Shown here: positions 40,602 to 45,064 of the stretch, one piece after another
Layout of the letters: every line of letters begins with the position of its first letter
How positions within the stretch are numbered: position 1 is the stretch's first letter
DNA from: Thermoplasmatota archaeon
GTDB lineage: Archaea; Thermoplasmatota; E2; DHVEG-1
DNA length: 55,571 nt
Assembly (NCBI GenBank): GCA_029762575.1
Contig: JARVGL010000003.1
Span: 1-55,571 of the forward strand
Direction: 5' to 3'
The notes under the pieces: generated by a model
What the model saw: the letters and a program-made list of their open reading frames with translations, nothing else
Told to the model about the DNA's origin: nothing
The model's database searches: none
Translations under genes and position numbers: made by a program

Positions 40602-42062
40602 ATGTTAAATAAGGTTCTGATTGCAAACCGAGGGGAGATAGCCGTCCGGATCATGAGGGCCTGCAAGGAATTAGGCATACAGACGGTTGCAGTATACTCT
40701 GATGCGGATAAGAACGCATTGTTTGTCAAATATGCGGACGAGAAATATAACATCGGTCCGGGTCCTGCAAGTCAAAGCTATCTAAAAAAAGAGGCAATTA
40801 TCGATGTTGCATTGAAAACCGGTACGCAGGGCATACATCCAGGCTACGGGTTCATGGCAGAGAATGCGGATTTTGCAGAGATGTGTCATAAGAATGGTAT
40901 CGAGTTCATCGGTCCCCCAGTTTCTGCTATGAGACTGATGTGTTCAAAGATCGATTCAAAGAAATCAATGATACAAGCCGGTGTCCATGTTGTACCAGGG
41001 GTGACTGAGGCTATCAGTGATCATGAACGAGCAAAGGATATCGCATGCGAAATTGGTTTTCCTGTCATGCTCAAAGCATCTGCTGGCGGTGGCGGTATTG
41101 GTATTAGAAAGGTCGATGATGAGAAAGAGATGGAGAAAGCATTAGCTAGTGTACGTCAACTCGCTAAGAACAGTTTTGGTGATGACTCCGTGTTCATTGA
41201 GAAGTTCATCGATGACCCACGACATATCGAATACCAGATTATTGGTGATAAAAAAGGCCATATCATTCATTGTTATGAACGTGAATGTAGTGTCCAACGT
41301 CGTCATCAGAAGCTCATCGAAGAGACCCCGTCCTGTGCGTTGACCCCAGATCTTCGTGAAGAGATTGGGAAACAGGCGGTGCTTGCTGCAAAGACCGCAG
41401 GATACTATAATGCAGGAACCTGCGAGTTCATGTTTAAGGATGGTAAATATTTTTTCCTTGAGATGAACACACGTTTACAGGTTGAACATCCTATAACAGA
41501 GGCTATCACTGGTGTGGATCTTGCAAGAGAACAGTTACGGGTAGCCTCAGGTCTTGATCTGGAATATGGACAATCGGATATCAAACCCCGTGGTCATTCC
41601 ATTGAATGCCGTATCAATGCAGAGGACCCTCTTAATAACTTCATGCCAGCGCCTAGTAAGATAGTTCGATATGCTGAACCAAGCGGGCCAGGTATCCGAG
41701 TTGATACAGGCGTATATCAAGGCTTTACTATTCCTCCGTTCTATGATTCTATGATAGCAAAACTTATCATATGGGCAGAAGACAGACCACGTGCCATCGC
41801 AAGGACAAAAAGAGCGCTCTGGGAGTTTCAGATCGGTGGTGTTCGACATAATATCCCATTCCATGAGATCGTCATGGATGACCCTCAATGGATCAAAGGC
41901 AACTATAATACGAGTTTCATCCCCCGATATAAGATCCTTGATAGGGTTGTTGAGTATGTAAAAGCCAAGAAAACCCAATCATCATCTCCTAAGGTAGCTG
42001 CGGCTATGGCTGCAGTTCAAGCAGTCAATGCTTCATTTATAAGTTCACAAAAGAAAAAATAG
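40602..42062 (+). CDS. pycA: Pyruvate carboxylase subunit A (biotin carboxylase)
   Basis: ANRGEIA, HPGYGF, GGGGIG, RECSVQRRHQK, EMNTRLQVEH, ECRINAEDP, YDSMIAK. Confidence 0.92.
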   Translation: MLNKVLIANRGEIAVRIMRACKELGIQTVAVYSDADKNALFVKYADEKYNIGPGPASQSYLKKEAIIDVALKTGTQGIHPGYGFMAENADFAEMCHKNGIEFIGPPVSAMRLMCSKIDSKKSMIQAGVHVVPGVTEAISDHERAKDIACEIGFPVMLKASAGGGGIGIRKVDDEKEMEKALASVRQLAKNSFGDDSVFIEKFIDDPRHIEYQIIGDKKGHIIHCYERECSVQRRHQKLIEETPSCALTPDLREEIGKQAVLAAKTAGYYNAGTCEFMFKDGKYFFLEMNTRLQVEHPITEAITGVDLAREQLRVASGLDLEYGQSDIKPRGHSIECRINAEDPLNNFMPAPSKIVRYAEPSGPGIRVDTGVYQGFTIPPFYDSMIAKLIIWAEDRPRAIARTKRALWEFQIGGVRHNIPFHEIVMDDPQWIKGNYNTSFIPRYKILDRVVEYVKAKKTQSSSPKVAAAMAAVQAVNASFISSQKKK

Positions 42063-42138: not shown

Positions 42139-42696
42139 TTATCTTCTTAAAAGATCAAGTGAGGTAAGTTCATCAGTGAGTTTTTGTATGGCAAGGGATA
42201 CATCTTCAGTCTTTCGTGCACCGGTACAAACGAGCTTACCTGACCCAAAGAGAAGCATAGCAACCTTTGGTTCATCGATACGATAGACAAGACCAGGGAA
42301 TTGCTCTGGTTCATATTCCACGTTTTCAAGACCAAGACCTATTGCAACCTCGTTGAGATTCAGTTCAGATCCAAGATCTGAGATGGCAACGATGTTTTGG
42401 ATAACGATTTTCAACTCATTATTTTCATAGACCTCTATACCTAGTTTTCGTAATTTGTCTGCGATGATATCAATGGTCTTTCGAACGTTATCAACATTTT
42501 TTGCTCCAGTACAATTCGCTTTTCCACTCCTGAAAAGTAATGTGGCGGTTTTTGGATCTTCCAGTCTATAGACAAGGCCAGGGAATTGCTCTGGTTCGTA
42601 TTCAGCTTCTTCAAGTGCTTGCGCGATTGCATCTAGATCCAGTTTCTCTGCAAATGAGGTTGATGCGACAATATTCTCAACGATTACTTCAGGCAT
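42139..42696 (-). CDS. tbp: TATA-box-binding protein (canonical)
   Basis: Two repeats each with NIVA, EYEPEQFPGLVYR, LLFxSGK, CTGA. Confidence 0.98.
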   Translation of the reverse strand: MPEVIVENIVASTSFAEKLDLDAIAQALEEAEYEPEQFPGLVYRLEDPKTATLLFRSGKANCTGAKNVDNVRKTIDIIADKLRKLGIEVYENNELKIVIQNIVAISDLGSELNLNEVAIGLGLENVEYEPEQFPGLVYRIDEPKVAMLLFGSGKLVCTGARKTEDVSLAIQKLTDELTSLDLLRR

Positions 42697-43255
42697 GTTT
42701 CCCCTCCGTGTTTTCTAGGATCCCCTTCAATGTAAGAGTATGTTTCACAGAGTTCAATGCTGCTTTTATCTCTTCAAGGGTTGTGTGTCCCGTTAGGATT
42801 AGTTTTCCCGAGGGAAAGAATAGTATTACGAGATGTTCCGACGGATGGTATTCAAGCCAGGGTGATTGGTTCGGTTGATATGATACTAGTTCAATGGGCA
42901 ACGCTTCATTGACCCTTGAAAGCTTAAGGGATTGTCCCACATCATAGGATGCGGTAATGGTATGTATCTTAACTGGGCATGTATCTTGGATTCCGATACC
43001 TGTTTTTTTAACCATATCCATAACATTGTTCAAAGTCTCATTTGCAACATCAAAAGAGGGAGATCCTGTACAAAAAAACTGACCATCAGAAAGAATGAAC
43101 ACCGCACGTTTAGGGTCAGAAAAACGGATAACACAGACAGGTTGATCAATCGGATTGTACGTTATATCTGGGAACGATCCAACCAACGCATCAAGCGGGA
43201 TTTGTTGATGGATATGTGCTACAGCAATGACGTTCTCGATAAGAAGTTCTGTCAT
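42689..43255 (-). CDS. Divergent TBP paralogue
   Basis: Colinear with tbp: IENVIA, YNPIDQP, RFSDPK, CTG; second repeat YQPNQSP, FFPSGKLILTG; TTTATATA box and AGGAGG upstream. Confidence 0.85.
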   Translation of the reverse strand: MTELLIENVIAVAHIHQQIPLDALVGSFPDITYNPIDQPVCVIRFSDPKRAVFILSDGQFFCTGSPSFDVANETLNNVMDMVKKTGIGIQDTCPVKIHTITASYDVGQSLKLSRVNEALPIELVSYQPNQSPWLEYHPSEHLVILFFPSGKLILTGHTTLEEIKAALNSVKHTLTLKGILENTEGKHA

Positions 43256-43336: not shown

Positions 43337-44032
43337 TTACCAGATGCGATCGATATCAAGATCTTGTTTCTTCTGTTGGCTTTGTTGAGCTTTTTCTTTG
43401 TTCATCTCATCAAGTAACGCCCTGAACTCATCGGTACGATATTCAATGCGTTGTTCACAACTTGCCACCGCTAGTTCTCCCCTTGTCTTTTCTATAAGAC
43501 TGCGGGTGATATCTTGCTTTCTTTTAATAGGGATAAGAGATGCAGGATAATCGAATCGAAGTATCGCATCATAGATTGCTTCCATGTTGATTAGGTAGCT
43601 ATATGCTTCCTTTGCTTCCCCATTGAGAACGGAATCAATTGCCTTTCGTCTCAGCTCGCCTACGACATCACATAGACCTTCCAAATAAGACGTATAGGAG
43701 GTATGGAGTTCATCAGGGTCGGGGAGGTCCTTTTCTAGCAAGATATTCAGTAGACAATTCGCTTCAACGAATTCTTGAGATGCATTCTCGACAAACCCCG
43801 CATTTGATAGATCCGGATAGTTCTTTGTTTCATCAGAGAGATCGCTAAGTACTTTAGAAGCTTGGGTTATGAGTTCCTCAGACTCTTTGAAATGTCCTTG
43901 GTGGAGGTGTTGAATCGATTTTCGACAAAAGATGATGATGGTTCTGGAATATCGAAGAGCAATCTCACGTACCTTTTCTTTATCATCAATATTTTTTTCA
44001 ATCTTAGTAATGATCTCTTCTAGATTCTTCAT
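43337..44032 (-). CDS. Translin/TRAX (C3PO-like) family protein
   Basis: All-helical; REIALRYSR, QEFVEA, YLEGLCDVVGELRR, KRKQD. Confidence 0.85.
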   Translation of the reverse strand: MKNLEEIITKIEKNIDDKEKVREIALRYSRTIIIFCRKSIQHLHQGHFKESEELITQASKVLSDLSDETKNYPDLSNAGFVENASQEFVEANCLLNILLEKDLPDPDELHTSYTSYLEGLCDVVGELRRKAIDSVLNGEAKEAYSYLINMEAIYDAILRFDYPASLIPIKRKQDITRSLIEKTRGELAVASCEQRIEYRTDEFRALLDEMNKEKAQQSQQKKQDLDIDRIW

Positions 44033-44063
44033 TGCGCACCTAACAGATTTACTTCTCTAATCT

Positions 44064-45020
44064 CTACACCATCATGGATTTGTTCACCCAGTGATCCGGT
44101 GTTTCACCTTTAAGGGCTTTATCGACCTGCTCAGCGCAAATCGTACCCGCTCGTATCTGCCCTTCTTTAGTGTTTGCTCCAATATGTGGGGTTAATACGA
44201 TATTTGGAAGATGGAGTAGATCCGTGTCCCCGGGTGGTTCCTTTTCAAAGACATCAAGAGCGGCTCCAGCTATCTTTTTTTCTTTCACCGCGTGATAGAG
44301 TGCGTGCTCATCCACGGTTCCACCACGAGCACAATTTATAAGAAACGCGGTTGGTTTCATTAATGAGAACATCTCCTCGTTCATGATATGATGGGTCTTT
44401 TCGATGTGTGGGATATGCATCGAAATAACATCAGATTGTCTTACAAGGCTTTCCAGTTCATCTACCTTTTTGATATTGTCTTTCTCCATATCTTCTTTTG
44501 AGATATATGGATCGTATCCAATGACTCTCATGCTGAACGCTTGGGCAAAACATGCGGTCTGCCGTCCAATGTTGCCACAGCCAATAAGGCCAAGGGTCTT
44601 TCCATGAAGTTCTGTACCCTTCAACTTTTTCTTTGCCCATTCCCCTTTTTTCATCGTTGCATCAGCGACAGTGAGATATCGTGAAAGAGAGAGCATATGG
44701 CCAATCGCGAGTTCAGCAACACTTACTGTTGCGCCTGTTGGAGCATTGACGACCTTTATACCAAGGGATGCAGCTGTTTTGATATCGATATTGTCAACTC
44801 CGATACCCGCTCTACCGATTACCTTAAGCGATCCTTTTGCCCCTGCTTCAACGATCTCTTTTGTTGCCTTGGTCCTACTTCTAACCATAAGCGCATCATA
44901 GTGTGAAATCTCTTTTAGAAGTGTTTCAGCATCCATCTCTTGATATGTTATCGCATGACCTGCATCTTCCAATACTTTGACTGCTTCATCAGCCATTTTA
45001 TCGGTAATAAGTGTCTTCAT
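44064..45020 (-). CDS. serA: D-3-phosphoglycerate / D-2-hydroxyacid dehydrogenase (SerA-like, no ACT domain)
   Basis: VRSRT, GRAGIGVDNID, SVAEL, GCGNIG, NCARGG, ALDVF, TPHIGANT; ATG 45020 after GGGGG. Confidence 0.8.
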   Translation of the reverse strand: MKTLITDKMADEAVKVLEDAGHAITYQEMDAETLLKEISHYDALMVRSRTKATKEIVEAGAKGSLKVIGRAGIGVDNIDIKTAASLGIKVVNAPTGATVSVAELAIGHMLSLSRYLTVADATMKKGEWAKKKLKGTELHGKTLGLIGCGNIGRQTACFAQAFSMRVIGYDPYISKEDMEKDNIKKVDELESLVRQSDVISMHIPHIEKTHHIMNEEMFSLMKPTAFLINCARGGTVDEHALYHAVKEKKIAGAALDVFEKEPPGDTDLLHLPNIVLTPHIGANTKEGQIRAGTICAEQVDKALKGETPDHWVNKSMMV

Positions 45021-45064
45021 CGAGGTAACCCCCAGCAAGAGTATCCCTCATCGTGTAATAAAAG

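Follow-up and report, generated by a model that had tools for sequence, protein, structure and literature searches.

Why should an archaeon keep a second, divergent gene of the TATA-binding protein (TBP) fold directly ahead of its canonical tbp gene, and what could its product do? This question is raised by the 55.6-kb window analysed here, the whole stretch of contig JARVGL010000003.1 of a Thermoplasmatota archaeon, in which the upstream TBP-fold gene (named UP) and the canonical tbp (named DN) both lie on the minus strand. UP is very probably a selected, functional TBP-fold protein that is produced together with TBP, and it is probably unable to nucleate a canonical TATA-TBP-TFB complex (TFB, transcription factor B). 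The best overall explanation, in which UP is selected, shares a transcript with TBP, no longer kinks TATA or recruits TFB and acts as a modulator, has in our view about an even chance of being right as a whole. The original prediction of a 188-amino-acid (aa) TBP-fold gene upstream of tbp with an 8-nt overlap was confirmed, and the two genes are arranged as follows.

42689-43255, minus strand: UP, 188 aa, divergent two-repeat TBP-fold paralogue, first cistron (open reading frame with Pfam TBP match)
43255-43253 and 42691-42689, minus strand: start codon ATG and stop codon TGA of UP, from the open reading frame (ORF) listing
42139-42696, minus strand: DN, 185 aa, canonical TATA-binding protein, second cistron, ATG at 42696-42694
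42696-42689, minus strand: 8-nt overlap of UP and DN, ATGCCTGA, with the DN ATG within the last codons and stop of UP (...AAA CAT GCC TGA)

The same -8 overlap is also present in the related genome G004, and the conserved ...HA* C-terminal end in the UP subclade of the window is explained by this overlap.

Both products matched the Pfam TBP model (PF00352, cut-off 22.9) with two repeats each, UP with 91 bits (E-value 4.3e-26) and DN with 201 bits. The single repeats of UP scored 47.8 and 46.2 bits. The AlphaFold2 model of UP (23-row alignment; pLDDT 91.0, pTM 0.82) has both repeats complete and is predicted to form the saddle of two alpha/beta repeats, each with the order S1-H1-S2-S5-H2. When this model was searched with Foldseek, ranks 1-44 of the PDB matches were all TBP chains (TMq 0.79-0.87; e.g. 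1mp9_A, E-value 3.7e-15), and the matches include TBP structures solved in complex with TAF1, Mot1 and NC2. UP remained below the cut-off of all ten NCBIfam TBP models (NF001592-NF001601), scoring 116.5 against 288 at best, 111.9 against 255 and 104.6 against 181, whereas DN passes NF001597 (256.6 against 255) and NF001593 (208.4 against 181). NF001593 is also passed by a third, canonical TBP gene on another contig of the same genome (G000:C84:28237-28785, locus L039). Only one TFB gene (on contig C69 of G000) was found in this 94 %-complete genome, which therefore holds three TBP-fold genes beside one TFB. A functional archaeal TBP carries two DNA-kinking Phe pairs (PMC5501381 and PMC4230888) and two C-lobe stirrup Glu residues that contact Arg and Thr of TFB/TFIIB (section 11 of PMC7221094). 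UP has neither the two Phe pairs nor the Glu pair. Thus, UP is a member of the TBP-domain family and, by curated score and defining residues, it is not a TATA-box-binding protein.

When UP and DN were compared using BLASTP, 58 of 178 positions were identical (33 %; E-value 1e-33) with 3 gap positions, none of which falls in repeat 1. The residue changes originally read from the window were all recovered in this comparison and in the alignments. Repeat 1 is ungapped and has F38->Q and F55->L, while repeat 2 has EQF->NQS, QN->HT (loss of the repeat-2 Asn) and YR->YH. One of the four Phe is kept, the last one (F147 in FFPSGK), and the stirrups of UP read YNPIDQ and YQPNQS where the canonical sequence is YEPEQF. 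The core residues CTG, SGK (in repeat 2 only) and DPK are kept. Chance cannot account for these changes, since the four Phe, the two Asn and the two stirrup Glu pairs are intact in every one of the 40 DN orthologues. The third paralogue keeps all four Phe, both Asn and the C-lobe Glu pair in 66/66 sequences, and its N-lobe stirrup Glu are kept save for two exceptions at one position (64/66).

The loss is greatest in the genus-type UP set (23 sequences, alignment A1). F38, F55 and the first C-lobe Phe (S131 in the window) are retained in 0/23 sequences, and 17/23 have the last Phe; two sequences keep the repeat-2 Asn and one keeps R139. At the two C-lobe positions that contact TFB, UP of the window has Q127 and N129, DN has Glu in 40/40 at both, and the genus-type set has an acidic residue in 6/23 and 11/23. 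Nearly every member of the genus has a different C-lobe stirrup. In the same lobe, the strand FPGLVYR has become xPWLEYx in the genus, with the following motif in the window.

42857-42871, minus strand: PWLEY motif (P132-W133-L134-E135-Y136), genus-specific, in place of PGLVY on strand S3' of the C lobe

W133, which stands for the Gly of FPG, is found in 22/23 genus-type sequences and E135, which stands for Val, in 18/23, and Q17 is nearly invariant. The Gly at the position of W133 is present in 40/40 DN and 66/66 third-paralogue sequences. Residues F190, G192, I194 and R196 of yeast TBP, which we take to be the homologous ones, alternate on S3' and face the DNA, and by this homology W133 and E135 would be oriented to the concave face. 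A conserved acid and a bulky Trp, in the absence of the Phe and the Arg, would fit better with a changed binding surface than with a DNA-kinking one.

The UP sequences of other genera (35 sequences) have gone less far. They retain the C-lobe Phe pair almost without exception (33/35 and 35/35), the N-lobe pair is often absent (F38 18/35, F55 15/35), and 12/35 have K or R at the second TFB-contact position. UP of family f3 has remained canonical. The losses form a graded series, from canonical in f3 through half-degenerate in the other genera to remodelled in the genus of the window. UP of the window is unlikely to nucleate the canonical TBP-TFB-TATA complex because its kinking Phe and TFB-contact Glu are lost and the NCBIfam cut-offs are failed, and we infer that both TATA and TFB binding have gone.

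The pair, UP followed by DN on the same strand with -20 to +51 nt between them, was observed in 27 of the 35 genomes of the order, the window's own included, and in all three sampled families. The 34 other genomes comprise 26 with the pair (16 in f1, 8/8 in f2 and 2/2 in f3), two with a UP-type gene without adjoining DN (G009 and G018), two with a DN-type gene without UP (G017 and G024), and four that give no call (the contig ends there, or genomes of 64-83 % completeness gave poor matches or none). UP and DN are 12-51 nt apart in most genomes. The UP frame is open in every pair (173-188 aa; one ends at a contig end). None of six class-level relatives checked has the pair. Among 80 named Thermoplasmatota loci around DN-like genes, 23 have it; records of Thermoplasmatales proper, Methanomassiliicoccales-like archaea and DHVE2 show a single gene, and the closest named records are metagenome-assembled genomes of uncultured Thermoplasmatota or "Thermoplasmatales archaeon". 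A word-based protein search with UP gave four close homologues. Pattern searches with the single UP protein found no related locus in genome or metagenome contigs, and alignment A1, run as one pattern against viral contigs, found none either; neither result is evidence of absence. An exhaustive protein search also returned some odd TBP-fold proteins (among P0010, P0019, P0056 and P0139), namely a three-lobe protein of 272 aa, a eukaryote-like double TBP of 376 aa, a TBP of 317 aa whose lobes are separated by an insertion of roughly 130 residues, and a protein of 702 aa in which four stretches matched.

In the phylogenetic analysis, UP looks like an old gene. A tree of 151 rows has a branch (SH-aLRT 89) with all 45 UP-type rows on the same side. 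In a more careful tree of 90 rows, one long-branched UP stands outside the UP group, and a single UP clade is not rejected by the AU test (p 0.44). DN and the third paralogue form a starred clade with other Thermoplasmata TBPs. The UP clade of the genus has 100/100 support with a stem of about 0.8 and nests within family f1. A single old duplication appears to be the simplest reading because UP follows the family structure of the order, and a recent duplication is ruled out on the same ground. The third-paralogue group is restricted to family f1 and shares a clade with DN (support 97*). UP-DN gene conversion was also considered and rejected, as no stretch is common to both and the sole direct repeat lies between DN's own repeats. 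These DN repeats share an 81-nt stretch that is 77 % identical (42266-42346 and 42551-42631), in which a 20-nt identical core encodes EPEQFPG.

The ratio of non-synonymous to synonymous substitution rates (dN/dS) was calculated by the Nei-Gojobori method for eight pairs, and all UP values lie below neutrality with p<1e-4. In the seven f1/f2 pairs, UP gave 0.20, 0.20, 0.38, 0.37, 0.08, 0.17 and 0.21, and DN gave 0.01-0.04. By pair, the values include the following.

G003/G011: UP 0.20, DN 0.01
G010/G001: UP 0.20, DN 0.012
Two further genus pairs: UP 0.37-0.38, DN 0.013-0.018
Family f2 pair: UP 0.08, DN 0.014
Window/G004 (dS saturated): UP 0.17, DN 0.04
Family f3 pair: UP 0.01, DN not estimable (dS saturated)

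Non-synonymous evolution of UP is about 10-30 times faster than that of DN, and end branches are 0.3-1.4 changes per site in UP versus 0.01-0.09 in DN. UP is under selection that is far looser than that on DN. The original prediction had named absence or frameshifts in relatives together with dN/dS near 1 as the marks of a decaying duplicate; such decay was not borne out, and a decaying pseudogene is ruled out by dN/dS of 0.08-0.38 (p<1e-4), by the intact ORFs and by the pair in 27/35 genomes.

The promoter region lies upstream of UP, and a second translation signal lies at the junction.

43310-43306, minus strand: BRE-like (B recognition element) CGAAA, promoter upstream of UP
43302-43294, minus strand: TATA box 1, TTTTAAATA, promoter upstream of UP
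43290-43283, minus strand: TATA box 2, TTTATATA, promoter upstream of UP
43276-43271, minus strand: GGAGGG, 6 nt after TATA box 2 and 15 nt before the UP ATG
42707-42701, minus strand: Shine-Dalgarno-like GGAGGGG for DN, in the coding end of UP, 4 nt before the DN ATG

The double TATA-like box (CGAAA, then TTTATAAA, 3-7 nt and TTTATATA) was found in 39 of 42 distinct UP-upstream regions (loci L008-L069). Of 67 single tbp genes, 14 have it as well, each of them a single-copy gene from an out-group (L018, L045, L104-L126), and no third paralogue of this order is among them; the upstream region of the third paralogue is conserved, differs from that of UP and has no double TATA box. The strict double-box form occurs once in the window. 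As the double box precedes both UP and out-group single-copy tbp, the ancestral tbp promoter would now stand ahead of UP and drive it first. The double box may be a site of TBP autoregulation; a literature search returned nothing on a double TATA box at an archaeal tbp gene. The place of GGAGGG relative to TATA box 2 is fixed across three families, and it stands 13-16 nt from the UP start, a spacing to the UP ATG that is long for a ribosome-binding site.

In the window, no TATA-like box was seen within the 72 nt that precede the start of DN. Most other pairs, too, have a GGAGG-like motif a few nt ahead of the DN ATG (read by eye). The original prediction had the two proteins co-produced and translationally coupled. 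Its 8-nt overlap is real and the promoter layout agrees with it. Co-transcription of UP and DN and, in the lineage of the window, translational coupling are well-founded inferences, because the promoter lies upstream of UP, no TATA-like box precedes DN and DN has its own ribosome-binding motif. In many f1 genera (L022-L056), UP ends in ...G(V/A/I)L-stop, written TTATAA or TTTTATAA. This TATA-like string, which the window lacks, lies some 15-28 nt ahead of the start of DN and could serve as an internal promoter that gives rise to a leaderless DN transcript.

RNA library X14 contained 9 % of the sampled words. A 199-nt RNA-library contig lies inside UP with 1 mismatch, a weak hint of expression, and a relative's contig of 292 nt (32 mismatches) extends from DN over the junction and, by eye, into a G004-like UP end, which is also weak, since the RNA runs are contigs that carry no transcript ends or strand, DNA carry-over is possible and a two-gene contig does not equal one transcript. 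A scan for sigma-70 promoters and intrinsic terminators, which is not meaningful for archaea, gave two promoter-like sites, below the shuffled mean, and no terminator.

The surroundings of the operon were compared as well.

43337-44032: translin-family gene, upstream neighbour of UP-DN

A 2-hydroxyacid dehydrogenase gene is the further upstream neighbour, and downstream of DN a convergent 486-aa gene ends at 42062; judged by eye, it looks like a biotin carboxylase gene. The syntenic region (43337-45038 and 40602-42062 of the window) reads 2-hydroxyacid dehydrogenase, translin-family gene, UP-DN and convergent carboxylase-like gene. By ORF sizes and order only, the same synteny looks retained in relatives including L012 and L054.

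Taken together, a history in three stages is proposed. A tandem duplication at the base of the order would have placed two canonical TBPs under the ancestral double-TATA tbp promoter. The upstream copy would then have drifted, with the N-lobe Phe pair lost first in about half of the lineages. In the genus of the window, the first C-lobe Phe would have been lost, FPGLVYR rebuilt as xPWLEYx, and conservation of the TFB-contacting Glu pair ended. UP would today modulate basal transcription via its remodelled concave face, binding a protein and not kinking DNA; a protein is the most likely target of this rebuilt face. First among the candidate partners is the co-produced TBP, and UP might cap the TBP saddle or hold TBP in reserve. 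That the partner is TBP itself is possible, though on balance unlikely.

A narrower form of this idea, that UP is a dedicated TBP antagonist or chaperone within the tbp operon whose rebuilt saddle underside docks on the DNA-binding face of TBP, is doubtful; the underside changes that it would call upon are Trp133, Glu135 and the loss of Phe and Arg. If it were true, UP would be made in step with TBP under the conserved double-TATA promoter, so that the operon would set the pool of free TBP itself, and UP would be an archaeal, paralogue-based counterpart of eukaryotic control by TAND, Mot1 or NC2. Thermococcus TIP26 is reportedly a protein that caps or sequesters TBP. The action proposed for UP is like that of TIP26, TAF1-TAND, Mot1 and NC2, namely to block the DNA-binding face of TBP. 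However, none of these is a TBP paralogue, and UP-TBP binding is a proposal.

Several observations weigh against a selected modulator. UP is dispensable in some lineages (L054, G017 and G024). L054, the sister of the genus's DN, has the translin-DN-convergent gene synteny without UP, with DN kept after a 182-nt gap behind the translin-like gene. Within the genus, UP sequences share no more than about 30-54 % identity (median of pairs 0.34 in the N lobe and 0.32 in the C lobe), and their helices and stirrups vary freely. This variability speaks against TBP as the partner, because TBP is invariant and a protein that binds it would be expected to conserve its interface. Compared with a strain contig of 97.4 % identity, UP has 9 non-synonymous and 3 synonymous differences and DN has 5 and 7, among the 26 of 40 differences listed (24 of them inside UP or DN), and these strain-level changes fit weak constraint on UP at short range. 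About half of the DNA-facing positions are still TBP-like in genus-type UP (N8 in 23/23, T63 in 22/23, L145 in 23/23, T155 in 19/23 and R44 in 14/23), so UP may retain some DNA binding.

The locus of G009 (L012, G009:C47) tells the opposite of L054. It has the order translin-UP-convergent gene with an intact UP-type gene carrying PWIEY, DN is absent from it, and G009 has three canonical TBPs at other loci. Since G009 keeps an intact UP without DN there, service as a leader ORF for DN is not the sole reason why UP has been retained. L054 and G009 are reciprocal exceptions at one syntenic locus, and the two genes are separable.

The retained DNA-facing residues lead to the first alternative, in which UP binds DNA via a partly intact saddle without recruiting TFB and is a competitor or repressor at TATA-like sites; a candidate site is one TATA box of its own promoter, by which it would autoregulate the tbp operon. 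The polar and basic residues at N8, T63, T155 and R44 agree with this, as does the situation outside the genus, where the C-lobe Phe pair is kept (33/35 and 35/35) and the TFB Glu are often changed or charge-reversed (K or R in 12/35). The double TATA box, in 39/42 UP-upstream regions and rare elsewhere in the window, would offer a place to act. However, three of the four Phe are absent in 23/23 genus sequences, the strand taken to face the DNA has Glu (18/23) and Trp (22/23) in place of Val and Gly, and R139 is missing from 22/23. The double box is not dependent on UP, because it is also present ahead of single-copy out-group tbp genes without UP (14/67). We consider this alternative unlikely.

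The original prediction compared UP with metazoan TRF2, and a second alternative follows from it: UP would be a TRF2-like alternative initiation factor that recognises a non-TATA element and recruits TFB and RNA polymerase (RNAP) at a subset of genes. The loss of the kinking Phe in a kept TBP fold, the defining trait of TRF2 (PMC4422821), was borne out for UP. UP and TRF2/TBPL1 are both TBP-core paralogues in which the TATA-contacting Phe are not conserved and a conserved Trp is found on the DNA-facing side. In TBPL1 the Trp stands at one Phe position, in the N-lobe (L5.1; PMC7221094), whereas in UP it follows the lost C-lobe Phe by two residues. Methanosarcina is also described as having several TBPs beside one TFB (PMC5501381). 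The likeness is weakened in that TRF2 still interacts with TFIIA and TFIIB and brings Pol II to promoters that lack a TATA box (PMC4422821), whereas UP has lost the TFB-contact Glu pair. This pair is not conserved and the C-lobe stirrup is variable even though the genome has a single TFB. Non-synonymous evolution about 10-30 times that of DN would be unusual for a factor docking TFB, DNA and RNAP, and UP is lost in some relatives. To our knowledge, archaea have no TFIIA. UP is not orthologous to TBPL1, as it groups with the UP genes of its own order, nested in f1. We therefore rate a TRF2-like role as quite improbable.

Least probable, and only slightly so, is a functionless relic that stays open because it lies between the promoter and tbp and its translation aids tbp expression, with purifying selection acting only against misfolding: its very fast evolution (branches of 0.3-1.4 against 0.01-0.09 for DN), its dispensability in L054, G017 and G024, the 9 non-synonymous among 12 listed strain-level UP differences, and the easy deletion and undetected transcript of TbpC in Halobacterium (PMC4230888) are outweighed by dN/dS well under 1 in 8/8 pairs, by new genus-wide invariant residues (W133, E135 and Q17), by an ORF intact in every pair of three families, by a DN that has its own ribosome-binding site and is mostly 12-51 nt from UP, by UP-type genes kept without adjoining DN in G009 and G018, and by a clean deletion that is possible (L054) yet rare.

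The original prediction spoke of an unrecognised layer of transcription control, and this is weakened, since haloarchaeal TbpC-like paralogues lacking a Phe pair are already in print (PMC4230888). These are the closest precedent of UP. According to the same paper, the TbpC-like group has lost the N-lobe Phe pair and may be non-functional. The two groups are alike in that they are long-branched archaeal TBP paralogues that keep the two-repeat fold, have lost intercalating Phe and are maybe dispensable. UP outside the genus of the window often shares the pattern of a lost N-lobe pair and a kept C-lobe pair, whereas UP of the window has also lost the first C-lobe Phe (S131). UP differs further as the first gene of a tbp operon with the ancestral promoter and measurable purifying selection, and in the genus by the lost TFB-contact Glu pair and the gained PWLEY. 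Because of its operon position and order-limited distribution, UP likely originated independently of TbpC, inside this Thermoplasmatota order, as judged with trees that contain no haloarchaeal TBP.

The minor TBP paralogues of Methanosarcina resemble the present case in having several TBP-fold genes beside a single TFB (PMC5501381). No account of a Thermoplasmatota TBP paralogue was found in the literature search. Methanosarcina paralogues are reportedly separate genes that keep canonical DNA-binding residues. New here are the genus-level extreme (3-4 Phe lost, with PWLEY), the graded series across families, the separable genes and the promoter.

The usual picture of basal transcription in archaea consists of TBP and TFB, and regulation falls to gene-specific factors. 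In an uncultured Thermoplasmatota order, a second TBP-fold gene is kept ahead of tbp (27/35 genomes), and UP of the window's genus has given up its TATA-kinking and TFB-contact residues while selection continues and new invariant surface residues have appeared. If UP were functionless, the case would still be a caution for annotation, as a protein that matches Pfam TBP and yet is not to be listed among the TATA-binding proteins. Should UP act on TBP or on promoters, it would be a simple and tractable case of control at the general factor itself, for which two small soluble proteins and one promoter suffice, and the order would provide a natural series of intermediates for the loss of DNA binding in a TBP paralogue.

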